The notes under the pieces: model-generated
Told to the model about the DNA's origin: nothing
Seen by the model: the letters and a program-made list of their open reading frames with translations, nothing else
The model's database searches: none
IMG/VR virus record: IMGVR_UViG_3300006098_000001
From: a virus
Length of the DNA: 64,000 nt
Reading direction: 5' to 3' (one strand)
Shown here: in pieces, positions 8,240 to 53,218 of the stretch
Layout: the number at the start of each line of letters is the position of its first letter
Position numbering within the stretch: position 1 is the first letter of the stretch
Made by a program: the position numbers and the translations under genes

Positions 8240-8468
8240 TGCTTGCTTTAGTACATTCAGAAAGCATTCCAAAGATCTTATTTTAAGCTCACAAATTTAT
8301 TACACGGATAGGAGCTAGGTTCTACGTTTACCTGAATCGCCGTGGTTTCTATAAGAAATTTCTAACAACGAGGGAGCTACCCTCCGGCTACATATTAACG
8401 GTGGTGTAACCTTAGATGCCACGTTTCCATTTCAATTAAGAAGGTTGATAAAAACCTTTCATCACTGC

Positions 8469-25638: not shown

Positions 25639-25670
25639 AGCAGTAGTTACACTGCAAAATAACTACTGCT
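25639..25670 (-). terminator. intrinsic terminator of the recombinase gene
   Basis: 11-bp stem AGCAGTAGTTA/TAACTACTGCT followed on the minus strand by T7. Overlaps the stop codon. Confidence 0.7.
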
Positions 25671-26931: not shown

Positions 26932-27097
26932 GTTCTTCCCCTATATGCCTGTCCTAATTAATCTAAACAATTGTATTATACCTTTAGTTATAGCTTAAAT
27001 CCATACATCAAATACAATTGTGTTGTTATATTAACACTTTCTTATATTATAGCAAGCAGAATAGGCTATTAATTTACCCCAACCAGATATTAGTGAA

Positions 27098-28138
27098 TTA
27101 TTTTAGTACTTTGTGCTCCTTACCAGTACGATAAACTGTATTTTCTATTTCTGGACGTGAGTGAATTAACATTAATAATTGTTCTTTTGAGAGCTTATCA
27201 ATTTCTGTGTAATCATAATTGGTTGTTAGCATTGCTGCTCCAGTCATTGTTGGGTCTTGTTGTGAATGGATATATTTTTCTGTGTTCACGATACTCTCGT
27301 GATCTAGGAAATCTTTTACTAACATAATATCTTTAGTTTGGTAATAAAGAGTAGTGGCAGCTCCTGCACGCAATGAGTGTGGTGTTAATTGGTGATTTAT
27401 TTTCTTACTAAATTCTCTAAGCGCATTCTTTAATGTTTCATGCGAAAGAGAGTTAAATACGAATTCATTTTTATCTCCGTTAAACAATTTTTCTTTTAAC
27501 TTATTGTAATAACTCAATTCAAGATATTTAGTATTTAATTTTTTCCCTTTATCAATAACGTCTAATCGTGCAAAACGTGTTCCATCATGTGCAATGACGA
27601 ATTGAAAATCTTCCCATTTGATCGAAAATATCGCTGAAACACGGACGCCTGTTCTAAACATAAAATCTACTAATAACGCATATTTTATTCCTAACGTTTC
27701 ATCGGGATCATTACGATATCTTCTCTCTTTTAAAAATTCTTTTAATTGTTCTAACTCTTCACGAGAAATTGCCTCATGGTGCTTAACGTCATTTGTCTTT
27801 AATGATTTATTTGTTAAAACGTAATTATTTAAATCGTCAATATTTACACTTTTATAAATTCCCTCCTTCTTAATCATTTTCATAAGTGAACGAACTGCTA
27901 TCAAGTGACCTTTAATCGTTGAATCCTTAATGTCTTTTTCTCGTAAAGGTGCAATAAATTTATTTAATACATCACTGAACCGAAGATGATTTAGGTCATA
28001 TTCGCTAATCTCAACTGGCTCTTTATTAAACACCATTTTGCTGAAAAGCGTTACTGATGTTTTGTAATTGTGAATTGTATTAGCTGTAGCCAACGAATTA
28101 ATCCAAGTTAAGTATACTTCGTGCATTTCTCTTTCCAT
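27098..28138 (-). CDS. tyrosine recombinase (XerC/D/integrase family)
   Basis: FRTGVRVSAIFSIKWEDF (box I Arg); TPHSLRAGAAT; LDHESIVNTEKYIH (box II with catalytic Tyr). Start moved to MEREMH (GGAGG 7 nt upstream). Confidence 0.85.
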   Translation of the reverse strand: MEREMHEVYLTWINSLATANTIHNYKTSVTLFSKMVFNKEPVEISEYDLNHLRFSDVLNKFIAPLREKDIKDSTIKGHLIAVRSLMKMIKKEGIYKSVNIDDLNNYVLTNKSLKTNDVKHHEAISREELEQLKEFLKERRYRNDPDETLGIKYALLVDFMFRTGVRVSAIFSIKWEDFQFVIAHDGTRFARLDVIDKGKKLNTKYLELSYYNKLKEKLFNGDKNEFVFNSLSHETLKNALREFSKKINHQLTPHSLRAGAATTLYYQTKDIMLVKDFLDHESIVNTEKYIHSQQDPTMTGAAMLTTNYDYTEIDKLSKEQLLMLIHSRPEIENTVYRTGKEHKVLK

Positions 28139-28166
28139 TGTAATTCCTCCATATCTCCTATAACAC

Positions 28167-28182
28167 AATGCGGATTTTATAA
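28167..28182. repeat. left arm of a perfect 16-bp inverted repeat
   Basis: AATGCGGATTTTATAA; reverse complement at 28353-28368. Confidence 0.85.
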
Positions 28183-29710: not shown

Positions 29711-30058
29711 CTATATACAAAAGTCATTAATTACTTTACTAAGTTGTCTTTTAACCTTGTTGAAATCTTCTAGTCGTAATTTATCCATTGGTAAAGAACG
29801 CACTCTTTCACGAGAATAACAATGTATTTGTGTTGCATTTACTCGACCATATATATTTGCATAGCCCTGTAAATTAACGTAACCATTAAAATAAGTTCCA
29901 CCAGAAGTGATTGGTGCTACCATAAGATAATTTGTATTGCGATTATATCGATCGTTAGAAATAATTACCGCTGGATGAATACCTTCCATCTCAGTATCTA
30001 TAGCCGGACTAAAGTCTAAATAGATAATATCTCCCTGTTTATACTGTACTTTACTCAT
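29711..30058 (-). CDS. MazF/PemK-family endoribonuclease toxin
   Basis: GDIIYLDFSPAIDTEMEGIHPAVIISND...MVAPITSG. Start set at MSKVQ (GGAG 7 nt upstream). Confidence 0.8.
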   Translation of the reverse strand: MSKVQYKQGDIIYLDFSPAIDTEMEGIHPAVIISNDRYNRNTNYLMVAPITSGGTYFNGYVNLQGYANIYGRVNATQIHCYSRERVRSLPMDKLRLEDFNKVKRQLSKVINDFCI

Positions 30059-30108
30059 AATTTTCTCCATTCTACATTGTAAAAATGTCATTTTAACGAC
30101 TGCTTATT

Positions 30109-30895: not shown

Positions 30896-31309
30896 TTAGT
30901 GGTGGTCTTGCTCTTTGATTCGACTTGAATGTTCTTTTAAGAACTTTGCTACTTTAAGCATAATTTCTTCGGTATCATCCTGTGTAGTAATACCAAGCAT
31001 TAAAGCTATACCCTCATCCTTAGTAACTTTGAGATGATAATCATTTTTCATTAAGAACAGCTTTGTAGCAACGTAAGCTGTTCTTTTATTTCCATCAGAA
31101 AATATATGCTTTTTTGTAATCTTCTGCATTACATACGCGGCTTTAACCCAAATTGTTGGGTATAATTCCGCACCAAAAACAACCATCTGTGGCTGTTCAA
31201 CTACTAAACTTAAACCTTCCGGGTATTGTAGCCCATAAACTCCTTCACCCGCTTTTCTAATCACTTGTTTATTTACAGCTAAAATTTCTTTTTCTGTTAA
31301 ATATTCCAT
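30896..31309 (-). CDS. doc: Doc (death-on-curing) Fic-fold toxin
   Basis: Fic/Doc motif HIFSDGNKRTAYV; 137 aa. Confidence 0.85.
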   Translation of the reverse strand: MEYLTEKEILAVNKQVIRKAGEGVYGLQYPEGLSLVVEQPQMVVFGAELYPTIWVKAAYVMQKITKKHIFSDGNKRTAYVATKLFLMKNDYHLKVTKDEGIALMLGITTQDDTEEIMLKVAKFLKEHSSRIKEQDHH

Positions 31310-35550: not shown

Positions 35551-35907
35551 TTAGTCTTCTAATTCTTCGATAGCATCATCAATCGCTTGACTTAATACAT
35601 AGCAACGCAAGGAAACATCAATTGATTCATAGCAATCATCAAGCCACCATTCAGCAGTTTTTTGACGGTCCATAAACCCTTCATCAATTGCTTCGCGGAT
35701 TAAGTCCTTGTTATCATCAACGTATTCCTTGGCTTTGTTGGCGTTGAAAGTATATGATCCTGAGCCATTACCAGTTACAGAATCTTCGATCCAAAGTTGT
35801 TCGTTGAGTTCTTCACGATCAACCTCGTTGACATTGATTTCGTTGTCCTTGATGAAGTCGATTACATCGTTCTTAACATTTTCAAAGTAGTCATATTGTT
35901 GTGTCAT
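35551..35907 (-). CDS. acidic protein (possible DNA mimic/anti-restriction type; speculative)
   Basis: 118 aa, strongly Asp/Glu-rich; first gene after a conserved promoter motif. Confidence 0.5.
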   Translation of the reverse strand: MTQQYDYFENVKNDVIDFIKDNEINVNEVDREELNEQLWIEDSVTGNGSGSYTFNANKAKEYVDDNKDLIREAIDEGFMDRQKTAEWWLDDCYESIDVSLRCYVLSQAIDDAIEELED

Positions 35908-35935
35908 GATATTTACCCCTCAATTAATATATTTT

Positions 35936-35955
35936 AGTATTTTTGTTGTGATTAA
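35936..35955 (-). promoter_or_regulatory. copy of conserved phage intergenic motif
   Basis: AGTATTTTTGTTGTGATTAA, 29 nt upstream of the ATG at 35907. Confidence 0.45.
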
Positions 35956-35970
35956 TAGTGTAAGATTACA

Positions 35971-36183
35971 TTAGTTTAGCAAGTTCGTCAATAGTACCCG
36001 TAGAAGTGGTAAGGTCACTGCAATAACAATAACTGTAATGAATACAGCTAAAATACTGTACTTCTTGAACCTGATTAGCCTTTCGCTATCTCGTTCTAAC
36101 TGCTTAATGTATTCAGGATCAACCAACTTGTAATCCTGTTCAGCGTATTTCTGTAGTTCCTTTTGTGACATCATAATTATCAA
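35971..36183 (-). CDS. small protein with C-terminal TM helix
   Basis: ORF track; ILAVFITVIVIAVTLPLL. Confidence 0.55.
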   Translation of the reverse strand: MIIMMSQKELQKYAEQDYKLVDPEYIKQLERDSERLIRFKKYSILAVFITVIVIAVTLPLLRVLLTNLLN

Positions 36184-36189
36184 AACCTT

Positions 36190-36700
36190 TCTAATTTGCT
36201 TCAGCGGTTATTATTAATCGCTTTATATAGAGTCTTATCGTGTTGATAAGGCTCTCTAAAAACAATTAATAGTGTCTTTTTCACTTTCACAGGCTTAAAC
36301 CAAGGAATATTAGCAAGTCCCTGCTGGTAGTATCACGGTGCCTTTATCTACTATTGATTAGGCGGTTGACGTGGAATCACCTACCCCTACCGTACCGGGT
36401 TATTTACCAACTTTTGATATTGCGGAGTTGTTCTCAGTTCTACTGAAAGATTGAACCGCCGTTATTTTGTTTTCAAAGTTCAGCATATGTTGGTTTGAAA
36501 GTGATTGAGTATGCTCTCGCTCACACTGTCCGCCACCTTAACTTTTAGCTTGAATACAGTTATGGCTTTATCCTGCCCTAGGTGATATATGGAATCCTAC
36601 ACCCTTGCGGTTTATCAAGTTATTATGTTAAGCCTGTTCAGCCCGTTGACTTTTGCGACTTGTTAACGTTTTTTGAATTGGTAACTTTCCAATTAGTTTG
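36190..36700 (-). ncRNA. candidate structured leader/ncRNA (about 500 nt, ORF-free)
   Basis: Downstream of four tandem consensus promoters. Long-range pair GGCGGTT (36361-36367) / AACCGCC (36455-36461) on the plus strand. Duplicated TGGAATC(A)CTACNCC at 36372 and 36591. Many hairpins. Confidence 0.25.
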
Positions 36701-36797
36701 AACAATTTTATATAACATCGTAAGTTATATAAGGATAACCTTTTATTTCTTAATCGCTTCAAGGCTTGCGATTGCCTGCTCCTTTATCGTGTCTTTA

Positions 36798-36826
36798 TTA
36801 TAACTTCCGATGTTATAATTGTCAAG
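36798..36826 (-). promoter_or_regulatory. consensus sigma70 promoter with embedded palindromic operator (P4)
   Basis: Minus strand TTGACA-17-TATAAT. Spacer carries TTATAAC-N7-GTTATAA (36799-36819). Confidence 0.7.
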
Positions 36827-36922
36827 ACTTAATTTTTTGAATTGTAGCGGTTGACCTTGAAGTCAAAGTTAGATACTCAAGTGAACTCACTTTCAATCCA
36901 TTTATTAAGTTTGTGCTTTTTA

Positions 36923-36952
36923 TTATAACTTCGTAAGTTATAAATTGTCAAG
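36923..36952 (-). promoter_or_regulatory. consensus sigma70 promoter with operator (P3)
   Basis: TTGACA-18-TATAAT; operator TTATAACTTCGTAAGTTATAA. Confidence 0.65.
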
Positions 36953-37038
36953 AAGTAAATTTGATTAATTTTTAATCACCTAGGCTAGTTCGATGACTGC
37001 TCTTTATTGTGATTGTCCTAATCAACTTTACGGCTTTA

Positions 37039-37067
37039 TTATAACTTCCGATGTTATAAATGTCAAT
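37039..37067 (-). promoter_or_regulatory. consensus sigma70 promoter with operator (P2)
   Basis: TTGACA-17-TATAAT; operator TTATAACTTCCGATGTTATAA. Confidence 0.7.
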
Positions 37068-37129
37068 ACCTTTTTCAAATTATTTTTGATACCTGGTATT
37101 TATTGCCGTTGTCCTTTTGACGATTCCAA

Positions 37130-37157
37130 TTATAACATCGCAAGTTATAAAGTCAAC
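37130..37157 (-). promoter_or_regulatory. sigma70 promoter with operator (P1)
   Basis: TTGACT-16-TATAAT; operator TTATAACATCGCAAGTTATAA. Confidence 0.65.
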
Positions 37158-37192
37158 TATTTTTTGTAAAAAAATAAGAGTAGTTATAATAA

Positions 37193-37423
37193 CTACTCTT
37201 GTAATTCTTTTAGGCGCTTATCTAATTCAATTTTAAACTCTTTCAAATCACTGATATAAGTATCTCTTATATCTATATTAGATTTTATTAATTGATATAA
37301 TCTTGTTTTAGATGATGGGCGAATAAAGCCCCCCGCCTCACTCTTACGCTTCCAATAGTAAGCTTTATCTGGATTAGCTTTTTCATAATTCTTTTTTGCT
37401 TGTTTTTGTGCTTCACTAACCAA
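37193..37423 (-). CDS. small basic protein (76 aa, TTG start); candidate regulator, paralog-like to 38701..38898
   Basis: AAGGAGGTG RBS. Shares ...K(K/R)Y...(R/Q)KKS.A..F...RLKEL architecture with the 65-aa protein. Confidence 0.6.
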   Translation of the reverse strand: MVSEAQKQAKKNYEKANPDKAYYWKRKSEAGGFIRPSSKTRLYQLIKSNIDIRDTYISDLKEFKIELDKRLKELQE

Positions 37424-37443
37424 GACTTCACCTCCTTTTTACT

Positions 37444-37472
37444 TTATAACATGGTAAGTTATAAGTATTATA
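37444..37472 (-). promoter_or_regulatory. promoter (-10 TATAAT with TG) plus sixth operator copy
   Basis: Minus strand TGGTATAAT, then TTATAACTTACCATGTTATAA between the -10 and the RBS. Confidence 0.6.
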
Positions 37473-37508
37473 CCATACTCAACAGAAATAAAACTACACA
37501 ATCAGTAA

Positions 37509-37537
37509 TTGACTATTACAATACTTAAGTTTAAAAT
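37509..37537 (+). promoter_or_regulatory. sigma70 promoter for the 32-aa peptide gene
   Basis: TTGACT-17-TAAAAT. Confidence 0.6.
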
Positions 37538-37569
37538 TGTTATATCTCCTTGAGTAAGGAGGTGACAAC

Positions 37570-37668
37570 ATGAAACATAATGAAAAAGAAAAGAAACAAC
37601 CCTATAAGGCTTTTTACTTTGAGTGTAGCCTAATAAAGTTATTTCTTAAAATCATCATTATAAAGTAG
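37570..37668 (+). CDS. 32-aa basic/hydrophobic peptide (type I toxin-like candidate)
   Basis: AAGGAGGTG RBS; MKHNEKEKKQPYKAFYFECSLIKLFLKIIIIK; followed by hairpin + T-run. Confidence 0.5.
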   Translation: MKHNEKEKKQPYKAFYFECSLIKLFLKIIIIK

Positions 37669-37766
37669 TGTAATCACTTCCCTGAGTTGTTGTGTGACGG
37701 CTCAACCCAGGGAGATTTTTATTACAATTACATTATATCACAATTTATTGTGGTATTATATATTTG

Positions 37767-37795
37767 TTGATATGATATTACTAGATTGTTATAAT
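37767..37795 (+). promoter_or_regulatory. sigma70 promoter reading antisense into the 31-aa peptide gene
   Basis: TTGATA-17-TATAAT. Confidence 0.55.
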
Positions 37796-37811
37796 ATAGA
37801 TACAAGAAAAC

Positions 37812-37848
37812 CCCTAAAGGTTGTTAACTTGTCCGTTAACCTTTAGGG
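37812..37848 (-). terminator. terminator of the 31-aa peptide gene
   Basis: 11-bp stem CCCTAAAGGTT/AACCTTTAGGG, followed on the minus strand by GTTTTCTT. Confidence 0.6.
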
Positions 37849-37862
37849 CGGTGAGTTATTCA

Positions 37863-37958
37863 CTACTTAATAATAAAGAATTTAAAGAATAATCTTAAAA
37901 GGCTGAACTCGCAATATACAACCTTAAAAGATTGTTCTTTTTTCTTTTTATTGTTCAT
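37863..37958 (-). CDS. 31-aa peptide, paralog of 37570..37668
   Basis: AAAGGGGGTGGG RBS; MNNKKKKEQSFKVVYCEFSLLRLFFKFFIIK. Confidence 0.5.
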   Translation of the reverse strand: MNNKKKKEQSFKVVYCEFSLLRLFFKFFIIK

Positions 37959-38345
37959 GTTCCCACCCCCTTTCCTTAAGGGGTTAAAATAATTTAAACA
38001 TCGTTATTTCTGAAAGTCAATAATTGAAAAAGAAAAAGCCAAAACGCAAAAGTAAAAAACGTTAAGGCTTAAAGGCTTAAAAGCTTACATATTGAGGGAA
38101 CGTGGCGCCGTTCCCTTTTTGTATAATTATCATATCATACTTACAACCCTAACAGAATAGAAAAATAACACCCCTTTATTTTTCTATATAAGGAAGAAAA
38201 AACATAATAAAAAAACGATAAAGAAAAAAATAAATATACATGTTGACAACATGAAGAATTGTGTTATTATAATATACGTAAGCTATTAATATAGTTTACA
38301 AGGCGACACACTAACAACAAATAATAAAGGTTTGAGGTGGTCAAA

Positions 38346-38486
38346 TTGTATTCTATATTGTTGCATGCTGCAACCTTGTTTAGTTTGGTAAGTGGTGGAA
38401 TTCTGGCGATAGTAACATCAATCGAAAAAGTTCTTATCATAAAAGAAAAAGCCCACAAGTCAGATAAGGACAAGGGGCAAAAATAA
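38346..38486 (+). CDS. 46-aa single-TM peptide with Lys-rich tail (TTG start)
   Basis: GAGGTG RBS; (M)YSILLHAATLFSLVSGGILAIVTSIEKVLIIKEKAHKSDKDKGQK; own promoter TTGACA at 38243 and its own terminator. Confidence 0.5.
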   Translation: MYSILLHAATLFSLVSGGILAIVTSIEKVLIIKEKAHKSDKDKGQK

Positions 38487-38505
38487 CTTACATTTATGAA
38501 TATTT

Positions 38506-38533
38506 GGGAAGTGTTGCGACCACTTCCCTTTTT
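38506..38533 (+). terminator. intrinsic terminator
   Basis: GGGAAGTG-(7 nt)-CACTTCCC + TTTTT. Confidence 0.7.
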
Positions 38534-38573
38534 CTACAGTGTTATAATAACATAATAAAAAGGGTGTGACAAT

Positions 38574-38681
38574 ATGAAATGGATCATATTAATTGGTCTA
38601 TATCTTTTCGGGTTTGTTTGTCTAACGGTTGCGATCAAAAAGGCGAGAAAAATATATAATACTTTAAAGCATAATAAATAA
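38574..38681 (+). CDS. 35-aa single-TM peptide
   Basis: AAAGGGTG RBS; MKWIILIGLYLFGFVCLTVAIKKARKIYNTLKHNK. Confidence 0.45.
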   Translation: MKWIILIGLYLFGFVCLTVAIKKARKIYNTLKHNK

Positions 38682-38700
38682 TTAAAATAAATATAGAATT

Positions 38701-38898
38701 ATGGAAAACAAACAAAACAAAACAAGTAAAGCAAAATTACAAGCAAATAAACGCTATCAAGAAAGACATAAAAAAGAAGTTTATCGCAATCAGAAAAAAT
38801 CTAGGGCGAAAAATTTTCTATTGAATGATGCAAGGATTGACGAACTAGAATTTTTTTCTGAATTAATTTCTGAAAGATTGAAAGAATTAAAAAAATAA
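38701..38898 (+). CDS. small basic protein (65 aa); paralog-like to 37193..37423
   Basis: ORF track. Followed by the hairpin GGGTAATGCG/CGTGTTGCCC + TTTTG. Confidence 0.6.
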   Translation: MENKQNKTSKAKLQANKRYQERHKKEVYRNQKKSRAKNFLLNDARIDELEFFSELISERLKELKK

Positions 38899-38929
38899 TA
38901 ATAGTAATTAGGGTAATGCGTTAGTGTTT

Positions 38930-39600
38930 AGCGTGTTGCCCTTTTGCATTGTGGTTATATGATAACGCTTACATAGTGATGTATAGCAGTGTATAGGTAT
39001 TACAGTGATATGTATATAGTAGCGTGCATAGTGTTGTTATGATAGTGATATATAGTAGTGTTATTTGTGTCTGTGTATAGATGTATATAGGTTAGTGAGT
39101 GAGTAGTGTTACATAGTGATATGCATAGTGAAGTAATATGATAGTGTAGTGATGTATATAATGTATTGAGTTAGTAACTGATTTACGTTTGTAGATATTA
39201 GATTGTCAAGGCTGAGAGTGAGTGCGGTGTATGGGGTGTAGTGTGATTAGTATGTTTGATATATGATAATGTTTTCATATGTTATTGTAATGATATAGTA
39301 AGTGAGTAGTATATTGATATGTATGTATTGAGTGAGTAAGTAGGCGGATTGCGTGAGTGTGTTTGGTTAGTTAGTTATTATATTAGGGGTGTGTATTAAG
39401 TTACGTTTGTAAATTTTAAATTGTCAAGAGTGAATTTTTATGGTCTGGGTTTATTATTGTGTTGGTTGTGATATGTATTAGTTAGATTTTATTTATTAGG
39501 GGTGTGGGTGAATTATTGGGCGGTGTTAGGTTAGGTAAACGGTTATTATATTAATTTATTGGGTGTTTGGTGTGGTGTGTGAGTATGTGTGAACATTTGT
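38930..39600. repeat. C-depleted (G/T/A-only) repeat-rich arm
   Basis: About 25 C in 660 nt by hand count. Many (C/G)ATAGTGA(T/A) units. Two copies of TTACGTTTGTA-N8-ATTGTCAAG (39183-39210, 39401-39428). Confidence 0.7.
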
Positions 39601-40085
39601 TCATAGCAGATTATAATATATGAAATTTTGTTCATATGAATTAGTGAAAAGTACCCTACCCAGCCCACCAAAATAAATATATTAAGTTTACAACTGTAGC
39701 CCCTTATAAATAAAATTACCCCTTATCAAAAGATAGGGGCTTTCTTTTTCGATATTAAAATATTCTTGTAACCGTTTACACATAACAACAACTATTATTG
39801 TGTCTTAAATTTGCAAATAGGCGGGGGTTATTTTACTCAAAACGCCTTAATTTTTAGGGAAAATTTTAGGGTAGTTGCTTCACTCACACACCACAAAATT
39901 TTTTCCATTCACCCCATTTCTCGCACCCTATCACCCCTCAAATATCCCAATAAATTAATACCAAATTTAACCTTTTCAAAACTATGAAAATATCTTTCAT
40001 AATCTTTCAACACAATATCCCTACCCATTCCTCTCACCCTTTCCCATTCAACTATAAATAAAGAGCCTAGGAATTACCCTAGACT

Positions 40086-40412
40086 CTAATTCATCTCATT
40101 ATTAATATACTCTTCTAACCCAACTCTGGTCTCGTCATCTAAATTGGCAACATACTCCCTATATTTACTCAAATAGCCCTCATTAATACTACTAATTACA
40201 TATAATATATACCCTTCGTATAGACCATCTGGACACTTTAATAATCGCTGCATCAGTCTCATTAAATAGTAATACTGTTCATCATAACCATCATTCATAT
40301 ATTTATTCTCAAATATATAATATGCAGTCCAAATAATATTATCGTCCCTATTTTCTAAACTGGATATACCCCATAGTTCCTTAATTATAGTATCTAGTTT
40401 AATAATCTCCAC
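40086..40412 (-). CDS. hypothetical protein (GTG start)
   Basis: ORF track; Tyr/Asn/Glu-rich; sits alone in an ORF-poor region. Confidence 0.45.
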   Translation of the reverse strand: MEIIKLDTIIKELWGISSLENRDDNIIWTAYYIFENKYMNDGYDEQYYYLMRLMQRLLKCPDGLYEGYILYVISSINEGYLSKYREYVANLDDETRVGLEEYINNEMN

Positions 40413-41650
40413 TGTCGTTTCCCCATTCTTATATTAAACGTATGTTCCCTTGTTATAATACACGAACGAATGTTCTTTATCAAGTATTATCAGTAAATAG
40501 ATACATATATCGCTTTATAGTACATTTTTATATTTATGTTCTTAATGCCATATACCTAATTATTCTGATTTATGAAAATATTGCGCACCCAAAATAGCCA
40601 TTTTTTGAAACAAAGAAAATTGCCTCTCGCTTTCATAACAATTATTTTCATAAAATTACTCAAAACTACCCTATTTTGCACCCAATAAAATCTTCGAAAC
40701 TCCCTATGAGGAATTCCTCAATTCACAAACTTTCGACTTCTACACAAACAACATTACTGAATTTAATTATACTTTGTGAATTTTTCTTCACTAATTCAAG
40801 AATTCAATTCTAAATAACTAAAATATGAACAAAAATTGTTATGAAAACATCGTTTTATGCATACCTAACTTATTTACGAAATAATCTGTCTTATTGTACA
40901 AAACTAAAAATTCATCATTCTTAATATTTCGCACCCTACTACTCATGTAACTAACCCTATCGAAACTCCCTATTTTTCATTTTGATATTTTTACTCAAAT
41001 CACTGAATTTTTAACCAAAAAAAATGAACTAATACCAAATCCTATTTAATAGGATCTAGTAGTACTTTTTTATAATTATTATTCACTTGAGACATTTATT
41101 AGTACATCTTCGATAATACAAGGGGTTTCAAACATCTAATTCCAGAAAATTTCACAAACTTAAAAAGGGTGCGGGGTATTTTTACTCTAATAACCTATAA
41201 TTATATGTTTCGTATTGGTTCATTATTTCCACTCAGACTATTTTTCATAATTCCGCCGCCATCTATCCATTGTAATAGGAAGAAAACCTCTATTTTCTAT
41301 CACTGCTTTTATTGTCGCTTGTGAAGTCATCAAAAAATGCTGTTTCATTTTTATGTAACTATTCTCGCCTTCTTTTTCTCTTTAAACACAGCCAAACACC
41401 AACGTAGAATGGAGTTAACGGGTCATAAATCAAAATTACATTAATTTATCTAAATCAGCTCTTAGCCCCATTATTCATTGTTCGTTTTGATTATTTATGA
41501 GCAATAATTATGTAGGTCAATTATTAAAACAGCTATTCCACAAGTTCCTTTAAATAAAAAACAGCGACAGTAAATACCACCGCTGAAATAATTACGGATT
41601 ACTTACATAACCACTTACTAATCTTTTTAATTAAATGTTTAACGTGCTTA

Positions 41651-41748
41651 TTAGGCACAATCAATATTATTAGACACCAATGCGTCATAAAGGAGTTGCC
41701 TCCTTTCTGCACTAGTCGGGTTTCCTAAGCCCGCTCAAATGTGCCTAA
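41651..41748. other. about 100-nt multi-hairpin element
   Basis: TTAGGCACA (41651-59) pairs with TGTGCCTAA (41740-48). Encloses AAGGAG-TTGC-CTCCTT and CGGG-TTTCCTAAG-CCCG. Confidence 0.35.
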
Positions 41749-41785
41749 TTATTGTATCATATTTATTTTATGCTATAATATAGTT

Positions 41786-41873
41786 ATCAATATTATTAGG
41801 CCGTGTGATGTGGGTGCTTCCTAGCTCACGCATTGGTTTAACGTGGGGCGCCCTGATAGGCGCTCTTTTTTTT
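41786..41873 (+). ncRNA. candidate small RNA (about 85 nt)
   Basis: Extended -10 TGCTATAAT (41771-41779). Strong terminator GGGGCGCC-CTGATA-GGCGCTC + T8. No ORF. Confidence 0.45.
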
Positions 41874-41882
41874 ATTTAAAAT

Positions 41883-41922
41883 AAAAGCCACAGTAACTAG
41901 TTTATCTGTTACTGTGGCTTTT
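41883..41922. terminator. bidirectional terminator (ends the parMR operon)
   Basis: 14-bp stem AAAGCCACAGTAAC/GTTACTGTGGCTTT with flanking A/T runs. Confidence 0.75.
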
Positions 41923-41983
41923 CACATTTTATATTACTTTATATGTTTAATTCCGATTAAATCATATATAATCAGATTAAGTA

Positions 41984-42373
41984 TTACGATAACATGTCTA
42001 AATTAGGCCTGTTTTTCAATTTAGAACTCAAAGAACTGTCATCAGTTTTAGAGTCATTATCGTTTTTCTTATTTCCAATTCTTGTCCTTAATTTGCGCTT
42101 GGGCTTTTCTTCAACATCGACATCATCATTCTCTTCTACCGACGTCTTTTCTTCTAGTTTTGAAACTGAGTTAATAGTACCTAACTGTCCATCTAAGCTT
42201 GCACTATCTAAAATAGCTTGGATAAGATCACCAGTTCCATATTTCCTAACTACCATTTCTAATGCCCTAATAGCAGCCGGAGAAAATTGTGACTGGTTTT
42301 TAGACCATTCTGCAACTTTTGAATCCTCGGGAATAAGGATAGTTTTTCTAATCATTTTCGCCATAAAAATCAC
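41984..42373 (-). CDS. ParR-like centromere-binding adaptor (candidate)
   Basis: Directly downstream of parM. N-terminal RHH-like KMIRKTILIPEDSKVAEW; charged disordered C-terminus. Confidence 0.45.
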   Translation of the reverse strand: MIFMAKMIRKTILIPEDSKVAEWSKNQSQFSPAAIRALEMVVRKYGTGDLIQAILDSASLDGQLGTINSVSKLEEKTSVEENDDVDVEEKPKRKLRTRIGNKKNDNDSKTDDSSLSSKLKNRPNLDMLS

Positions 42374-43590: not shown

Positions 43591-43811
43591 TATTTCTACC
43601 TCCGATTTATAACATAATCATATTATATCATACTTAATACAAATTTAAGTGTAACTAAATAAGATATTTTATTTTTTTATATGATATAATCTTCTTTTTG
43701 ATTACCACAATGTTAATAATACTATGTATTTAACATAATGTAAATAACATTTAACACTTTTAGAAAGTTTTATGAAGGCAAATAAAAAACGCTTTGGTAG
43801 CGTTTCATAGT

Positions 43812-44953: not shown

Positions 44954-45129
44954 TTCAATTCCACCTCACCTATTTATTAAGTACTATAATATCAAACCTT
45001 TCGGATTGTGTTAAGTGTAATATGTAATGTATATTATATGAATCGCATAAAACTACACAAAAGTGTTAAATGTGATTTATATAATGCATAATGTGAAATA
45101 TATTATTAATTATAAATTATGTATAAAAC

Positions 45130-45177
45130 ATATCCCATTATATATAATGTTTTTAATACTATACATAATGGGATATA
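45130..45177. repeat. 12-bp inverted repeat upstream of parA (parS/operator candidate)
   Basis: ATATCCCATTAT ... ATAATGGGATAT. Nearby TGTTAA(A/G)TGT(A/G)AT repeats at about 45009 and 45063. Confidence 0.5.
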
Positions 45178-45533
45178 CACGACTTATTAATATCTATTGA
45201 CTTTTTAGGTTTTTGATGGGATTATCTACTTGTAACAACAAACTATCCAAATGTGTTACAGGTGAGAGTTATTTATATGATTGGCTCACACAAAACAATT
45301 TTATATCTGCCCGAAAATAAGTCACTATCAAAGTATATGTTCGTGAGATAGTGTTATTTAAGCGTGATTTAATATGGTTCACGCAAAATATATTGAACAT
45401 TATTGTTATATTGCTATTTAAATTCGGGTATGGTATCTTATATTACATACCACAATAAGTGGTATTTTAGGCGAACCAAGTTTGAGAAGGATTAGGCACC
45501 CTTTGATAACTATTACAACTGAATAAAGAGTAT

Positions 45534-47101: not shown

Positions 47102-47848
47102 TTGATGAATCTAATCACGAAATACGATAGTTACAAAGAAGGATTGCCAAAAACAGAAATATATGGGATCGTTGACAAGAACATATTCCAAATCAATTTC
47201 GATCTTGAAGTTAATGATAAACTAACCTTTGACGAAATTAGCTTATTTATATATCTGTCTTATATGTCTTCACGAGCAACTATATATAATGGCAAGAGAA
47301 CAGTTATTGGCGCAGATGATGTAAGCCTATATAAACTAATTTATAAAACTAGTAAATTAGCAGGACGTTATCAGGAAAAAATTAGTAAAATCCACAAGTC
47401 ATTAAATCATCTTAAACGTCTTAGACTTATCAAATCGATGTTATACATAGACCGAGAAGATATTATTATACCTGATGTCGAAGATAACTATGGGAGGCTC
47501 TCCCCGGTAACGGTAGAATCAATTATTAAAATCTCTAAGGGCGACGCTTTATTAAAACATATTGGGGTGTATGCTGCTATGAAATCTACTGTTTATGCGG
47601 GAAGCACAAACACCTCTGTAGTTGAAAAAAATTCAAAATATATTGCCCATATGCTAAATACAACTAGTACAACTGTTGACCGACATCTTAAATGGCTGAG
47701 GGATAATAAACTAATTTGTTATTTTCTTTGTGCCTCAGAAAAAGGTACAGTTCGTAAATATTATTATGCCGATCTTCCTGATTGGGAAAATCTAAGAGAT
47801 AATATAAAGACAAAAATCAAAAGGGAACATATTCAATTAATTGCATAA
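47102..47848 (+). CDS. putative replication-associated winged-helix protein
   Basis: Follows the iterons. HTH-like NSKYIAHMLNTTSTTVDRHLKWLRDNKLI. Confidence 0.4.
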   Translation: MMNLITKYDSYKEGLPKTEIYGIVDKNIFQINFDLEVNDKLTFDEISLFIYLSYMSSRATIYNGKRTVIGADDVSLYKLIYKTSKLAGRYQEKISKIHKSLNHLKRLRLIKSMLYIDREDIIIPDVEDNYGRLSPVTVESIIKISKGDALLKHIGVYAAMKSTVYAGSTNTSVVEKNSKYIAHMLNTTSTTVDRHLKWLRDNKLICYFLCASEKGTVRKYYYADLPDWENLRDNIKTKIKREHIQLIA

Positions 47849-48018: not shown

Positions 48019-48741
48019 GTGAACAAAACACTATTTAAAACTGAATTAATGACGTACAAAGAGAGAAAAGAGAACATTGATAAAGAATTGAACCCCAACT
48101 TCTTTGAGGAATTTAATCGTGATGATATCGATAAGGGTAAGACAATGGCAGAAAGCTATTCGGGCTGGTTCAATGATCGAATTGTTCAATACTTAGTACA
48201 CGGGCGCAATATAGATAATCCCAAGGAAACAGATTATCCATTTTATGCGAGTGATTATGATTATTACAGAACAAGAATGGCTAAAGCCACATTGCTAACT
48301 GCGCAGATTGATGATTGGGTTAATCCGATTATGTCAAAGGATTATGAAATAAAAAATCAGGAAAATAAAAAAGAATATATTGAACGCTTATTTGATACAA
48401 ACAATTTAGAAGTTAATGACTTAAGAAATTTTATTAAATTAGGGCTTCACAAGGATCTGAAAAGGTTAAATTTTGAAGATTATTCTTTTGATTTATTACG
48501 AAATCTGCAAGAATTACAAAAAATTGTTTGGATGGGCTGTACAAAAAACACTGATCAAATATTCTTGAATTATTTTGATGGGAAAAGATCAATTAATGAA
48601 ATAAGCGTTATTTATGGTGTTACTCATCAGAATGTTTCAAAAAAATTAACAAGAATTTGCAAAAATGCCTTAAAAAAGTTGCGCGCACATGAAGGGTGCG
48701 CTTGTCTTAATGAGGAAGTAGATAATAAATTATCTGCTTAG
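48019..48741 (+). CDS. sigma-factor-like protein (region 4 HTH), GTG start
   Basis: C-terminal RSINEISVIYGVTHQNVSKKLTRICKNALKKLR resembles sigma70 region 4.2. Confidence 0.5.
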   Translation: MNKTLFKTELMTYKERKENIDKELNPNFFEEFNRDDIDKGKTMAESYSGWFNDRIVQYLVHGRNIDNPKETDYPFYASDYDYYRTRMAKATLLTAQIDDWVNPIMSKDYEIKNQENKKEYIERLFDTNNLEVNDLRNFIKLGLHKDLKRLNFEDYSFDLLRNLQELQKIVWMGCTKNTDQIFLNYFDGKRSINEISVIYGVTHQNVSKKLTRICKNALKKLRAHEGCACLNEEVDNKLSA

Positions 48742-49575: not shown

Positions 49576-50352
49576 ATGGCAGGGAAAATATGTGTCATCT
49601 GTGGTAAAGAAAAAAGGTCTAACCAACTTTTAAGACACAAGAACTTATTATTCGACAATGGTTTTTCTATTTGTCGTGATTGTGCCAATACGGTAGCGGA
49701 TTTTAGTAATGAGGATTCGGTTATTGAAATGGCACAATTCGCAAATATTCCCTTTGTCAAGAACCTTTACATCGATGTAAAGAGAACAAGTAAGAATCCT
49801 AATTTTGGAGAATACTTAAAGAAAATAGCTCCGTATAAGAATTTCAAGACCTTCTCTGATTCTGTATTCACAACAGATCATGCCGAGGAAACAGTAAGCA
49901 TTACCCCCGAATTAGAAAGTAGATGGGGTAAGGGATATAACGAAGAAGAATATGCTTATTTTGAGAATGTGCTACAAGGTCTTATTGCAATTAAACCGGC
50001 AACAACGGCATTTGAGATTCAGAGATATGTTGCCAATGTAAAGTTGAAGGACGCATTGGATAAGGCGTTTATGGATGGAGACTCTAAGGCGATCACTGCC
50101 TTACGTAAAGCATATTCAGAAGATTCAAAGGATTTAGGGTTTGACGCTGTACTTAGTGGGAATGATGACAGTGGAAAGACGTTGGGTCAAAGAATTCAAG
50201 GTTGGGAACTTAGTGAACCTGTTCCAGATAGCGATAAATACGAAGACGCTGCTGGCCTAAAGAAGTACATTGAAAAATGGTTCGTGATTCCTATGAAGAG
50301 AACCTTTGGTGTCGCCTCTGAAAAGGAGGTTGAAAGTCTATATGAAGACTGA
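49576..50352 (+). CDS. putative terminase small subunit (by position) with N-terminal zinc ribbon
   Basis: CVICGKE...CRDC. Immediately upstream of and overlapping terL. Confidence 0.35.
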   Translation: MAGKICVICGKEKRSNQLLRHKNLLFDNGFSICRDCANTVADFSNEDSVIEMAQFANIPFVKNLYIDVKRTSKNPNFGEYLKKIAPYKNFKTFSDSVFTTDHAEETVSITPELESRWGKGYNEEEYAYFENVLQGLIAIKPATTAFEIQRYVANVKLKDALDKAFMDGDSKAITALRKAYSEDSKDLGFDAVLSGNDDSGKTLGQRIQGWELSEPVPDSDKYEDAAGLKKYIEKWFVIPMKRTFGVASEKEVESLYED

Positions 50353-50632
50353 AAAGACACAACAAAAGTCTAGCTATTTTGAAAAACGAGAACGCAACCT
50401 GATGAAATGGGTTGGATATTGGCGAAGAAACCCACAGATATTCGTAAAAGATTATCTTGGAGTTAACCTGAAGCCTTATCAGAAATTGTTGTTTTACATG
50501 ATGAATAAGGTTGATTTCTTCATGTATATTGCGGCGAGAGGTCAGGGAAAAAGTTTCCTTATTGCTTTGTACTGTATTGTCCGGTGTATTTTATATCCTG
50601 GAACAAAAATAGTATTGGCTTCAGGTAAAAAA
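50342..50632 (+). CDS. terL: terminase large subunit, exon 1 (3' boundary approximate, +/-30 nt)
   Basis: Walker A AARGQGKS. Homology-like sequence ends near LASGKK, then reads into a stop at 50714-16. Confidence 0.7.
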
Positions 50633-51748
50633 GAAACGTATATATTTTGGGAGGATACATATCGTAAGAGTAATGAAGAGATGGACCGTAGAGGAAGAGA
50701 AGTTCCTCAAGGATAATTACGGGAAAATGACATGCCGAGAAATAGGCGATTGTTTGGAGAGATCTGTAGGATCTATAAGAAAACATCTTCCATATTTAGG
50801 CTTAAGGCGATCAAGATACAAATACAGCTTTAATGCTTCGTATTTCAATACAATTGATACGCCAGAAAAAGCATATTGGCTAGGATTCATTGCTGCTGAT
50901 GGATGCATTATAGATACAAGCTCTGAAAAGGGTTCACAGAAGCGTCTTAAAATTGGGTTACAAAAAAGTGATGATGAACACCTTAAAAAATTCAGAGAAT
51001 GTATTAACGGAAATCACCCAATTACATACTATGAATCAGTAAACAAAAAGCGAAATATTTGTTCTGAAGAATGTCAAATCGTTATTTATTCAGCAAGCAT
51101 GGTTGAGGATTTAGAGAGACTTGGATTATATCCAAGAAAAACATATTCTTTGCCATTCCCAACAGAAGAGCAAGTTTCTATAGGACTTATGCCACATTAC
51201 ATTCGAGGTTTTATAGATGGAGATGGAGCTTTTACTTCGCGTATCCGTAATGATCGTAATAGGCGCGTTGCCGAGTTTACAGTTACGGGTGCAGATAAAT
51301 CGTTCTTATTTGCTATGAAACAATTTTTTGAGTCTACGTTAGATGTACGTGTGGGATTATATGGGAAGTCTGATGGTAATTGGCGAATAACATCGTCTGC
51401 CATCTCTGATGTTTTAAAAATATTAGATTACGCATATAAGGCTGAAGGAATTACTTATAATTCAGTACTCAATAGAAAATACCTAAAATATATACGATCA
51501 AGAAAAGAATTTGCCGTCTGTGTTGGCAACAATACAGATAATAAACCCGGAAAAAGCTGGAAGCCTAAACTTGATATAAGCATGGTAATCAGAGCGGAAG
51601 GTCGCGAGAAAGCGAACACGTGCAGAGCATAGATTCTGAAATAATGAATCCACGAGGCCGGGTCATCTCTCAGAGATGAAAAGATATGCCGAGCTTATGA
51701 GAAATCATAAGAAGTAGAGGATAAAAAGCCTTTACGATAACAAAACTG
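50633..51748 (+). mobile_element. intron (probably group I) carrying a LAGLIDADG homing endonuclease; boundaries approximate
   Basis: About 1.1 kb separates the terL Walker A and Walker B exons. The insert ORF is in a different frame and stops occur in the exon frames, so it is not an intein. Confidence 0.6.
50673..51632 (+). CDS. LAGLIDADG homing endonuclease (two-motif, monomeric type)
   Basis: YWLGFIAADGCI and YIRGFIDGDGAF motifs about 100 aa apart. Confidence 0.85.
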   Translation: MKRWTVEEEKFLKDNYGKMTCREIGDCLERSVGSIRKHLPYLGLRRSRYKYSFNASYFNTIDTPEKAYWLGFIAADGCIIDTSSEKGSQKRLKIGLQKSDDEHLKKFRECINGNHPITYYESVNKKRNICSEECQIVIYSASMVEDLERLGLYPRKTYSLPFPTEEQVSIGLMPHYIRGFIDGDGAFTSRIRNDRNRRVAEFTVTGADKSFLFAMKQFFESTLDVRVGLYGKSDGNWRITSSAISDVLKILDYAYKAEGITYNSVLNRKYLKYIRSRKEFAVCVGNNTDNKPGKSWKPKLDISMVIRAEGREKANTCRA

Positions 51749-53218
51749 ACAAGAAGCCAAGCTGCAAATATCATTTCACAAAAGATAGTGGACTTTTACG
51801 ATCAATCAGCAGCAGTTCGATACGAAATAGGTTACAAGAAGGACCATATTAAAACGACGGTCAATGAGGCAAAGGTTGAGTTTAAGAATGGATCGAGGAT
51901 CTTTGCCGCTACATCTGGTGAAAGTGCTCGTGGTTTACGTTGTAATATCTTAATCTGTGACGAATTTCGTCTGATTAAGAAAGAAACATTGGATAAGATT
52001 CTAAAACCGATGCTTAACGTTTACCGCCAGCCACCATATTTATCGAAACCAGAATATAGTCACTTAAAGCGAGAGGAAAACAAACAGATTTACATTTCTT
52101 CTGCTTGGTATAAGTCGCATTGGATATGGGACGAATTCAAGAGCTATTTTAAGAAAATGACCAATTCGGATAAGCGTTATTTCGTTTCAATTCTCCCATA
52201 TCAATTATCGGTTAAGAGCGGATTACTTTCACAGAGTGCGGTTGATGCCGAAAGAACGAGTGACACATTCGATCAAACGAGTTTTGATATGGAATATGAA
52301 ACTATATTTGTTGGTGAAAATGATAAAGCCTACTTCAAGCTTGATCCATTAAACAAGATTAGAACGGTGGGAAAGACGTTTAGACCTCCAACTAATCAAG
52401 AATTCGTTGAAAATCAACATAGATCAAAACCAAGAACGTTGTCGAATTTCAAACGTGTCGATAAAGTAAATGAAATTAGAATAGTAGCCCTTGATATTGC
52501 CTTAATGGGTGGAAATAAGCTCGTTAAGAACGATACATCAGCATTTACGTTGATGAGGTTAATTCGTGAGGGTGATGAATATAAGCGCCAGGTTGTCTAT
52601 TTGGAAAGTATTCAAGAGTCAATTTCTTCGGAGAACTTAGCTATTCGTTTAAAACAACTATATTACGACTTTGAAGCCGATTATGTAGTTATGGATGCGA
52701 ATGGTAATGGGTTAGGAGTATTTGATGCTTGTACAACCGTCCTTACAGATAAAGATCGTGATATAGAATATCCAGCCTGGGCTTGTATCAATGATGACGA
52801 AACAAACGATAGAACAAAAACTAAGGGAATTAAATGTGTATATACGGTTAAGGCAAATGCGGCTTTCAACCACGAAATTGCAGTTTCCCTAAAGAATGTC
52901 ATTGAATCTGGAAAACTCAGATTACCTATGAATGACATTCAAAAGCGCGAAGAATTACAGGAAGATAAGGAATATCGAAAGTTGCCGGCCGAAGAACAAA
53001 TTAAGGTCTTATATCCATATGTTCAAGCGACTGCATTGGTCAACGAGTTGGTAAACCTTGAATATACCGTTAGAACTGGATATATCAAGATTTACGAAGT
53101 CGGAACCACAACAAAAGATAGGTATAGTTCGATCGCCTACTGTAATTATTACGCGAATGAATTAGAAAAAGATTTAAAAGAAGAAGCAGCTGACAATTTT
53201 AGCTACTTTATGATCTAA
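51749..53218 (+). CDS. terL: terminase large subunit, exon 2 (5' boundary approximate)
   Basis: Frame open from 51725. ...QAANIISQKI..., Walker B LRCNILICDEF, C-terminal nuclease-like region. Confidence 0.75.
   Translation, partial: TRSQAANIISQKIVDFYDQSAAVRYEIGYKKDHIKTTVNEAKVEFKNGSRIFAATSGESARGLRCNILICDEFRLIKKETLDKILKPMLNVYRQPPYLSKPEYSHLKREENKQIYISSAWYKSHWIWDEFKSYFKKMTNSDKRYFVSILPYQLSVKSGLLSQSAVDAERTSDTFDQTSFDMEYETIFVGENDKAYFKLDPLNKIRTVGKTFRPPTNQEFVENQHRSKPRTLSNFKRVDKVNEIRIVALDIALMGGNKLVKNDTSAFTLMRLIREGDEYKRQVVYLESIQESISSENLAIRLKQLYYDFEADYVVMDANGNGLGVFDACTTVLTDKDRDIEYPAWACINDDETNDRTKTKGIKCVYTVKANAAFNHEIAVSLKNVIESGKLRLPMNDIQKREELQEDKEYRKLPAEEQIKVLYPYVQATALVNELVNLEYTVRTGYIKIYEVGTTTKDRYSSIAYCNYYANELEKDLKEEAADNFSYFMI

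Follow-up and report, generated by a model that had tools for sequence, protein, structure and literature searches.

What can a stretch of DNA be for, in which one strand nearly omits C for several hundred nucleotides, returns to ordinary composition and then nearly omits G? The question is raised by positions 38,930-41,200 of the IMG/VR virus record IMGVR_UViG_3300006098_000001, whose 64,000 nucleotides were analysed as a whole and are here called the window. Sequence comparison identifies the element as a ~130-kb SPbeta-like temperate phage-plasmid of Limosilactobacillus reuteri, because its plasmid matches, its terminase, its replication and partition genes and the phage gene content of the complete relative p53608_1 all point to one. 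The locus is probably the packaging-initiation (pac) region of this phage-plasmid, where its genome would be opened. This reading gives a base-level prediction of the packaging start for a widespread L. reuteri and L. mucosae phage-plasmid family, which is found in probiotic and gut strains and carries anti-restriction, toxin-antitoxin, transfer RNA (tRNA) and transfer-messenger RNA (tmRNA) cargo. Such a prediction matters for transduction, for the induction of prophages in probiotics and for engineering the element.

The region is 77-89% identical to L. reuteri plasmids of 129-139 kb. The terminase-like protein encoded at 51788-53218 shares 41-45% identity, over 93-99% of its length, with proteins of SPbeta-group and Lysinibacillus phages, and two of the matching phage records annotate this homologue as terminase. 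The window also encodes a RepA_N protein, ParA with a DUF5388 protein, and an Alp7A/ParM actin with a putative adaptor. In p53608_1 (complete, 138.5 kb), phage structural, lysis and replication genes lie on one half, and small early genes, including one for an anti-restriction protein, on the other. The records of the relatives are circular, and the element is kept as a circular plasmid.

Strand composition and the SPbeta packaging block

Composition was surveyed in sliding windows across the 64 kb, with extremes read from 300-nt windows and a threshold of at most 6 per 150 nt for C-poor or G-poor segments. The most C-poor 300-nt windows all lie within 38950-39400 and the most G-poor ones at 39826-40000. 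At the segment threshold, 38991-39650 is the sole C-poor segment of the window and 39871-40120 the main G-poor one. The original prediction, made from the letters of this DNA, had put about 25 C in the 660 nt of 38941-39600 and 2 G in 39901-40020; we counted A170 C26 G186 T278 in the former and the same 2 G in the latter. Quantification of skew and repeats thus confirmed an anomaly that is extreme within the 64 kb. The plus strand had further been described as nearly G-free to about 41160, which holds for 39880-40060 (2 G in 180 nt, that is, 1-2% G, with 33% C) but not for 40100-41160, which is moderately G-poor (6-10% G). T exceeds A in the left, C-poor arm, and the right, G-poor arm has no T excess. 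The locus is not an assembly artefact, an option the same prediction had left, because 12 independent related assemblies show the same composition.

The layout of a C-poor arm, a centre of ~250-300 bp and a G-poor arm is also present in Goe11, SPBc2 (SPbeta), phi3T, BUCT082 and BUCT083. In Goe11, the gap free of open reading frames (ORFs) between yonP and a yonT-like toxin gene consists of a C-poor arm (5-6 C per 100 nt), a centre of ~250 bp and a G-poor arm (3-5 G per 100 nt) that carries CATCACACTCACAC; SPBc2 is laid out as phi3T, except that its G-poor arm is truncated. Genome opening and packaging start of SPbeta have been placed between yonR and yonP (PMC8270828), and its pac site was mapped by Fink & Zahler (1982). 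In their supplement 11, Kohm et al. (bioRxiv 10.1101/2021.11.22.469490) print, for four phages, the sequence of a precise high-coverage block of ~250 bp at the opening point; in virion DNA of SPbeta, phi3T and Goe11-14, they report, this block forms a sharp coverage peak and holds the first packaged bases. The published pac fragment, GCTATGGGTACA...GGGAATCGAAG, is base for base the centre between the arms (251 bp in SPBc2, 252 bp in phi3T). Moreover, two independent GenBank records are linearised at the block ends: BUCT083 begins GCTATGGG, and BUCT082 breaks after AATCGAAG. By sequence comparison, the base composition of the Bacillus phages flips at the same bases where their virion DNA is opened.

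The locus of the window corresponds to this fragment in several respects. Across the window, p53608_1, Goe11 and SPBc2, an early operon (with ardA) and type-I-toxin-like genes are followed by the arms and then by HU and the structural genes, as expected of an SPbeta-type pac region; the window differs in that a plasmid module (repA, parA/DUF5388, parM/parR), which SPbeta lacks, is inserted on the late side, between arms and late genes. The same element carries an SPbeta-type terminase (51788-53218), and the block is of similar size (~250-290 bp) and ordinary composition. In both genera, the toxin-side arm is GT-rich and of GTGAGT/ATAGTGA type, with GTGAGTG and TATAGTGATGA, and the late-side arm is of C-tract type, starting CCATTTC..CACCCTATC..CAAAT. 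The window arms are longer and more extreme, with 650 nt at 4% C versus ~200-250 nt at 5-6%.

A box, GGGGGT..TTTAC..TC.AA, aligns ~53 nt before the pyrimidine-rich arm, at the late-proximal edge of the block, in the Bacillus, L. reuteri and L. mucosae sequences; its pattern has a single match in the window versus 0.05 expected. The L. mucosae plasmid pLM1 (L021) has the same synteny, with a 3.3-kb ORF-free gap and a weaker mirrored skew, and its box GGGGG..TTTTACTCAAAA is followed by CACACAYCACAAAA and a G-free tract. At the junction of block and arm, CCCATAGC and ACTTCCATTTCCACACCC of SPbeta align with GGTAGTTGC and TTCACTCACACACC of the window. Between the window centre and the published fragment of ~250 bp, the box and this junction align, ~25 of ~290 nt, at conserved spacing. 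From this late-proximal boundary, we therefore predict an opening point at 39878/39879 and a block at about 39591-39878, whereas the Bacillus ends are known from virion DNA. Of the roles listed in the original prediction, 'telomere or packaging region' is the one to which the comparative evidence points, the centre being the counterpart of the mapped SPbeta pac fragment. The pac block itself is of a known kind, and on these alignments the window block is a divergent member of it. A blastn search of the L. reuteri region against phages gave no matches, and tblastn with the phrog_2277 protein (encoded beside the left arm) found no more distant relatives. Such arms were absent from pMP118 of L. 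salivarius, which has a related ParM, and from the first 50 kb of the Lysinibacillus phage LC76P1.

Parts of the locus and their turnover among relatives

The locus is made up of the following parts.

38910-38942, plus strand: intrinsic-terminator-like hairpin (15-pair stem, then a T run), closing gene 38701-38898 at the outer end of the left arm; kept in the aligned relatives.
38941-39590, unstranded: left arm; top strand ~4% C, G/T-rich, with hypervariable short repeats; bottom strand G-free and essentially structure-free.
39591-39878, unstranded: centre of normal composition; predicted packaging-initiation or genome-opening block, ~290 bp.
39591-39602, unstranded: perfect Cheo/LexA-type box, GAAC-N4-GTTC, overlapping promoter-like hexamers on both strands.
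39720-39739, unstranded: hairpin CCCTTATCAAAAGATAGGGG with T-rich tracts on both sides, bidirectional-terminator-like; kept in relatives L001-L003.
39823-39842, plus strand: box GGGGGTTATTTTACTCAAAA (copy 1), conserved and, within the L. reuteri family, invariant; the G-free arm follows after ~53 nt.
39879-40060, unstranded: right arm core; top strand G-free but for 2 G in 180 nt, with C at 33% and the C tracts CACCCC, CGCACCCTATC and CCCATTC.
40086-40412, minus strand: 108-aa ORF inside the outer right arm, with a terminator-like hairpin at 40087-40062; annotated in L001-L003.
40413-41170, unstranded: outer right region, 6-10% G, with direct boxes TTTACTCAAA (40655, 40990), CGCACCC (40584, 40930) and TCGAAACTCCCTAT (40694, 40960).
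41171-41192, plus strand: second pac-type box GCGGGGTATTTTTACTCTAATA, nearer to the Bacillus box than copy 1, with ATTTCCAC ~50 nt later.

The left edge of the centre is approximate (39585-39600), and its right edge is predicted from the cross-genus alignment. In a four-way alignment of the window with L001-L003, the 85 nt of 39821-39905 are invariant. They include the copy-1 box, which is also recognisable in pLM1 and in the Bacillus SPbeta-type pac fragments and is likely, as predicted from these alignments, to be the terminase recognition signal. The Cheo/LexA-type box, where TGAACA-16-TATAAT (plus strand) and TTCATA-16-TATTAT (minus strand) are found, is shared by the window and L001 but missing from L002 and L003, and is therefore not essential to the element. 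The second pac-type box lies in direct orientation 1.35 kb from copy 1, with no C-poor arm on its left; six relatives have it +1338 to +1359 from copy 1, and L018 has it at +451. It could be a second cut or termination site, or a relic duplication.

The repeats, palindromes, CGCACCC units, 33-nt duplicate and bracketing direct repeats listed in the original prediction were all found in place. TTTACTCAAA occurs exactly at 39832, 40164 (in the outer right arm) and 40990 and with one mismatch at 40655 and 41181, always on the plus strand. CGCACCC is found at 39922, 40584 and 40930 on the plus strand and at 41167 on the minus strand, AAACTCCCTAT at 40697 and 40963, and the duplicate at 39183 and 39401. 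The palindromes are GAACATTTGTTC (39591-39602) and TTCATATGAA (39631-39640), and the bracketing repeats span 39821-39840 and 41171-41190. ATAGTGA, GTGAGT and ATGTAT are the recurrent words of the left arm, with AGTGAGT observed 40 times versus 1.1 expected and ATGTAT 71 times versus 5.8. The highest fraction of flexible pyrimidine-purine (YR) steps in the window belongs to the left arm only, not to the right, and no consistent helical repeat period was found in the left arm. The G-free strands account for the ten least-structured 150-nt minus-strand windows of the 64 kb (0 to -4 kcal/mol versus a mean of -26.4 +/- 6.7), and the least-structured plus-strand window is the right arm core. The bottom strand of 39900-40050 is dense in G tracts.

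The outer right arm also contains TTTCATA/TATGAAA boxes in both orientations: 9 of the 30 such heptamers in the window fall in the 2 kb of 39273-41249, several as palindromes TATGAAA-N5-TT(T)CATA. The same palindrome is found downstream of parR in pLM1 (L021 11140-11215), and arrays of TTTTCATAAAAT spaced by 22 bp in the plasmid pLr03 are of this type too. These palindromes probably bind a dimeric protein.

It had also been argued that most of the G-poor block must be non-coding. A G-free RNA indeed has no translation start, but the outer part holds the plausible 108-aa gene at 40086-40412, which is probably real, albeit with no match to a Pfam or PHROG family; nor does the evidence show RNA to be the relevant level for the G-free tract.

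Twelve related sequences from plasmid records, IMG/VR and metagenomes were compared, and the succession of C-poor arm, normal centre and G-poor arm is kept in 12 out of 12. Within p53608_1, the locus is unique except for one 160-nt C-poor window inside a gene. The sequence of the left arm turns over fast, with 56-91% identity between relatives and many indels, and no more than about 56% of it can be aligned between elements that share packaging proteins of 98-99% identity, whereas the terminase-like protein and the 258-aa protein encoded upstream of it are 99% and 98% identical between the window and p53608_1. The arms of the relatives contain tandem arrays with periods of 4, 12 or ~22 nt, the microsatellites differing from one relative to another. 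Thus, the left arm of p53608_1 has 300 nt without any C, made of (TATG)n (~200 nt) and (TGAG)n, and that of pLr03 combines at least five unrelated tandem-repeat families, nearly all C-free. Among substitutions in the left arm, exchanges of T and C are ~0.28 as frequent as those of A and G, and exchanges of A and C ~0.06 as frequent as those of G and T; our own estimates under strand-symmetric mutation are ~0.6-0.9 and 0.4, respectively. The Cs that remain lie in conserved islands. Since the arm sequence turns over beside packaging proteins that are 98-99% identical, and substitutions avoid C, the alignments indicate that the left arm is constrained in its strand composition rather than in its sequence. 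Simple repeats would come and go by slippage and be tolerated as long as the strand rule is kept. Metagenome contigs end at scattered positions within the left arm; assembly breaks at repeats are the simplest explanation, and these ends were not used as evidence for a terminus.

The role of the arms and competing explanations

On both sides of the block, the strand running 5'->3' into it is G/T-rich and C-free, and its complement is G-free and C-rich. This polarity is unchanged whether the neighbouring genes diverge, as in SPbeta, or converge, as in the window. Its independence of gene orientation speaks for a role of the arms at the DNA level, linked to the block and not to particular transcripts. 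On this reading, the arms are non-coding subterminal tracts that start at the block edges. Were terminase to open the DNA there, the 3'-ending strand of each end would be C-free, a telomere-like polarity, and the strand exposed by resection, nick-extension or gap filling would be free of G-C hairpins either way. This would favour clean end processing, in duplication or annealing of the block, circularisation or recombination-dependent replication, and the mirror symmetry would orient the two processing events. We favour a function at the single-strand level, since the G-free strands are unstructured and the C-free strands are without G-C pairs, and infer from this a part for the arms in end processing.

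More tentatively, SPbeta-like phages from Bacillus to Lactobacillaceae may share a class of cis-elements, namely telomere-like strand-polar tracts that start at the opening base and act when single-stranded; we hold this generalisation to be possible but doubtful. The C-free 3' tails and G-free 5' strands of such tracts would direct or protect end processing, or escape end-sensing or base-specific defences, with selection acting on which base each strand omits and not on any motif. If the arms do act single-stranded at DNA ends, a bacterial virus would have its own analogue of the strand polarity of telomeres. In the literature searched, we found no description of mirror-image, base-excluding, hypervariable arms that start at cut positions, and the passages on the pac fragment in the SPbeta-phage papers do not mention arms. 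Here, arms in mirror image, each excluding one base, flank a pac block that has been mapped in SPbeta, an arrangement kept across genera while the sequence turns over. It is uncommon for selection to act against a single base of one strand along hundreds of nucleotides, and B. subtilis with SPbeta offers a direct test.

Known systems resemble the locus in part. Dunn and Studier, in 1983, reportedly described a T7 concatemer junction in which a 160-bp direct terminal repeat is flanked by the short-repeat arrays SRL and SRR. T7 thus also has a short terminal block bordered by non-coding short-repeat arrays, of which the left one has a C/A-rich, G-poor outward strand (67 C and 26 G in the 240 nt of 161-400). 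Strong promoters for the host RNA polymerase follow (A1 and A2 are annotated in the T7 record), as in the window four consensus promoters at 36797-37156 lead into the operon in which relatives have ardA. In T7, the anti-restriction gene 0.3/Ocr follows the promoters. However, the right-hand T7 array has the same orientation as the left one and is not strand-biased (56 C, 49 G), so that there is no mirror image, and the T7 repeats are a conserved heptamer, whereas the window arms are hypervariable. SPP1 (pacL-pacC-pacR) and lambda (cosQ-cosN-cosB) likewise have a cleavage region with accessory non-coding DNA on both sides, used there by terminase. Their flanks are short (~80-100 bp), sequence-specific, conserved and not strand-polar, in contrast to the long, sequence-variable flanks of the window, which are defined by the base missing from each strand. 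Telomeric repeats of eukaryotes and linear replicons have their G/T-rich strand 5'->3' towards the end and consist of fast-turnover short tandem repeats. The window arms are similarly G/T-rich 5'->3' towards the end on both sides, with TG-rich, TTAGGG-like units of variable length, but the plasmid is circular and has free ends only for short periods or inside virions. The annotation of p53608_1, itself circular, lists neither a telomerase nor a protelomerase, and no palindrome that is both long and perfect was found.

Several points weigh against the locus being a pac region with arms of this function. That the pac signal lies within the 250-bp block is speculation by Kohm et al. themselves (bioRxiv 10.1101/2021.11.22.469490). 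Apart from the box and the start of the right arm (~40 nt), the window centre cannot be aligned with the Bacillus fragment, and the opening point at 39878/39879 is a prediction by homology only. The box at 41171-41192, an extra copy relative to SPbeta, fits the Bacillus box better than copy 1 does, and the true pac signal could therefore be at this second box, or be bipartite. The role proposed for the arms is derived indirectly. The SPbeta-type arms contain no AGCGG, the Chi sequence of B. subtilis, flexible YR steps are abundant in the left arm only, and just one of the two arrays beside the T7 terminal repeats is strand-asymmetric.

Explanations of other kinds account for some of the same observations. 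An RNA-level device, in which promoters in the centre would fire outward and G-free, untranslatable RNAs would serve as Rho-utilization (rut) tracts, insulators, leaders or sponges, is unlikely; an insulator of this sort would separate the plasmid-maintenance genes from the early lytic operon. A constraint at the level of composition suits an RNA property, and the outward RNAs would be 1-4% G and 28-33% C, with no predicted structure and no start codons. Terminator-like hairpins are at hand at 38910-38942, 39720-39739 and 40087-40062, as are the promoter-like site at the SOS box of the centre and, in relatives L017-L019, an extended -10 TGGTATAGA just upstream of the box. The outward strands even resemble the 'C>G bubble' of rut sites, being C-rich, G-poor, unstructured and untranslated, but the locus is about ten times the typical rut length, and its orientation argues against an insulator: the incoming transcripts, which an insulator must stop, would be C-free and G-rich and so poor Rho substrates. 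The SOS box and the TTGACAAT units are both unconserved, YC dinucleotides are missing from the (CAUA)n tract that p53608_1 has, and a literature search did not confirm Rho in L. reuteri. The constancy of strand polarity between converging and diverging neighbour genes, and the exact switch of composition at the mapped DNA ends of the Bacillus phages, also count against it. The TTGACAAT promoters from which sponge RNAs had been proposed to arise have a perfect -35 without an acceptable -10 and are missing from p53608_1; weak and unconserved, they lend the proposal no support. Quite unlikely, too, is that the arms are duplex arrays (iterons, a centromere or pacL/pacR-like sites) coated or wrapped by the terminase small subunit, ParR/ParB or a phrog_2277 regulator, the strand bias being a by-product of C-free direct repeats. 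SPP1 pacL/pacR and lambda cosB do flank their cut sites. AGTGAGT and ATGTAT are strongly enriched, relatives have tandem arrays of defined period, YR-step content peaks in the left arm, and the right side has five TTTACTCAAA direct boxes and nine TTTCATA boxes in both orientations. Similar C-free 8-bp iterons belong to ParA/RepC-type partition systems of Gram-positive plasmids, an example being AT[A]GTGTAA in pBMB165 (PMC1626470). Yet one arm can hold five unrelated C-free repeat families, motifs are unconserved despite packaging proteins that are 98-99% identical, helical phasing is not fixed, the two arms differ in motif content and flexibility, and point substitutions avoid C, which duplex binding does not need. 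Nor does the arm co-vary with the partition systems: it is 91% identical between the window and L001 despite different ParA/ParB and ParM/ParR types, which speaks against the ParMR or ParA centromere envisaged earlier, and both par operons have upstream ATAATGT-type repeats of their own.

A lytic origin or R-loop zone, in which inward G-rich RNA would form persistent RNA-DNA hybrids and prime replication at the centre, appears very improbable. Inward transcripts would have G-rich non-template strands, G tracts being dense in the bottom strand at 39900-40050; as in many phage origins, ORFs are few and repeats abundant; and pLM1 has a good rightward promoter, TTGACT-17-TATGAT, at its outer left-arm edge, where the window has a weaker one (38936-38963). 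The skew nevertheless switches with the sign of a terminus, and the SPbeta block is a virion-DNA end, not a replication feature. No DnaA box was found in 38900-41250, and the cumulative-skew minimum lies at ~45 kb, beside repA and ~6 kb away. Together with repeats that are short, heterogeneous and unconserved, this also speaks against the origin or iteron field suggested in the original prediction. We give just as little credence to a neutral by-product of slippage-prone simple-sequence DNA, its bias coming from seed repeats or local strand-specific mutation. Microsatellite-like tracts in some relatives, such as the (TATG)n and (TGAG)n of p53608_1, frequent indels and an excess of T over A in the left arm that resembles a C->T deamination signature are what it would produce. 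What it leaves unexplained is the mirrored polarity with exact edges in Bacillus, L. mucosae and L. reuteri despite unrelated arm sequences; in addition, arms that are no longer repetitive are still 3-4% C, the right arm has no T excess, and the surviving Cs lie in conserved islands.

Several narrower candidates were rejected or set aside. A long hairpin or cruciform between the arms scored -164.6 kcal/mol in the window versus -140 +/- 6.8 after arm shuffling, but complementarity beyond composition (z = -2.9 in the window) was not in excess in nine relatives (z -0.8 to +1.2). For an N15-type hairpin telomere, the best inverted repeats were of 14 nt (100%) and 29 nt (79%), and the inverted repeat is unconserved. 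The 14-nt repeat likewise fails an invertible promoter segment, and no scorable relative has the terminator inverted. As for a central small RNA, folds of 39622-39752 (plus strand) and 39690-39910 (minus strand) were no better than those of shuffled sequences, and the covariance models of Rfam 15 gave no match at the gathering threshold in the region, with chance-level hits only at E <= 5 in 35900-42000. End protection by Chi clusters was set aside on the absence of the B. subtilis Chi, AGCGG, from the SPbeta-type arms noted above. No XerD-arm-like TTATGTAAA of a dif/Xer site was seen in the centre by eye, without a formal scan. The ACTCTAATA in the 41171 copy is similar to a pT181-type nick site, but the match is post hoc and no Rep_trans gene was seen. 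A decoy for MazF (UACAU) would fit the PemK/MazF toxin that the element encodes, but (CAUA)n is limited to p53608_1 and the motif is not general.

Neighbouring genes and other features of the element

Left of the arms, the early side has type-I-toxin-like ORFs, two phrog_2277 proteins, an early operon that holds ardA in relatives, and four consensus sigma-A promoters, each with a palindromic operator. The genes beside the block converge in the window and diverge in SPbeta. The four promoters are in tandem and point leftward (36797-37156, minus strand), three matching the consensus at 12 of 12 positions and one at 11 of 12. Each is overlapped by the palindrome TTATAAC-N7-GTTATAA, of which further copies occur at 36705-36735 and 37445-37465. 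This battery, ahead of an anti-restriction operon, resembles repressor-controlled early promoters such as T7 A1-A3. Directly downstream, 36200-36660 is ORF-free and higher in GC, and is syntenic in pLM1 (L021 13100-13760); it gave no Rfam match and could be a long structured leader or a non-coding RNA of the early operon.

Two small ORFs on the plus strand, 38337-38486 and 38574-38681, encode one hydrophobic helix followed by a Lys/Arg-rich tail and are surrounded by strong promoters and terminators. Both look like type I toxins, for instance SPbeta YonT, which is syntenic in Goe11 (L023 13361-13537). The phrog_2277 proteins, encoded at 37193-37423 (minus strand) and 38701-38898 (plus strand) between the early promoters and the left arm, are small, basic paralogues and candidate regulators; p53608_1 and pLr03 have only the minus-strand copy.

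The terminase large-subunit gene (50306-53218, plus strand), continuous in the SPbeta-like Goe11, is apparently interrupted in the window. The ORF of a LAGLIDADG endonuclease (50673-51632) comes after an N-terminal P-loop piece (50306-50716) and before a C-terminal piece (51788-53218), an arrangement suggestive of an intron or intein that carries a homing endonuclease. ORFs 47102-47848 and 48019-48741 (plus strand), located between repA and the structural genes, have weak sigma-70 region 4 or helix-turn-helix matches, and pLM1 and p53608_1 each have two hypothetical proteins in syntenic position. This pair may represent phage transcription factors in place of the SPbeta YonO RNA polymerase. 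Upstream of parM and parA, at 43600-43810 and 44990-45200, ATAATGT/ACATTAT-type repeats and palindromes are probably the actual centromeres or operators of the two partition systems.

Further cargo includes a tmRNA (tag ANNHRVTALAA) with a tRNA cluster at 8175-11935 (minus strand), in which cmscan finds six tRNAs and ARAGORN three; some of these are long (85-96 nt) and may contain introns. Genes for a PemK/MazF toxin, a Fic/Doc toxin, two tyrosine-recombinase-like proteins and an IS200/IS605 TnpA, for cargo or maintenance, lie at 29711-30091, 30896-31309, 25663-28168 and 751-1161 (all minus strand; coordinates given jointly). The same rep/par backbone is present in three smaller elements, pLRI01 (L017, 53 kb), pLr03 (L019, 84 kb) and L018 (98 kb), which keep the left arm and the box and may be deletion derivatives of the phage-plasmid. 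The left arm of pLRI01 is 92% identical to that of the window over 1.2 kb, and next to it an IS3 element and gshAB stand in place of the ArdA-type early genes.

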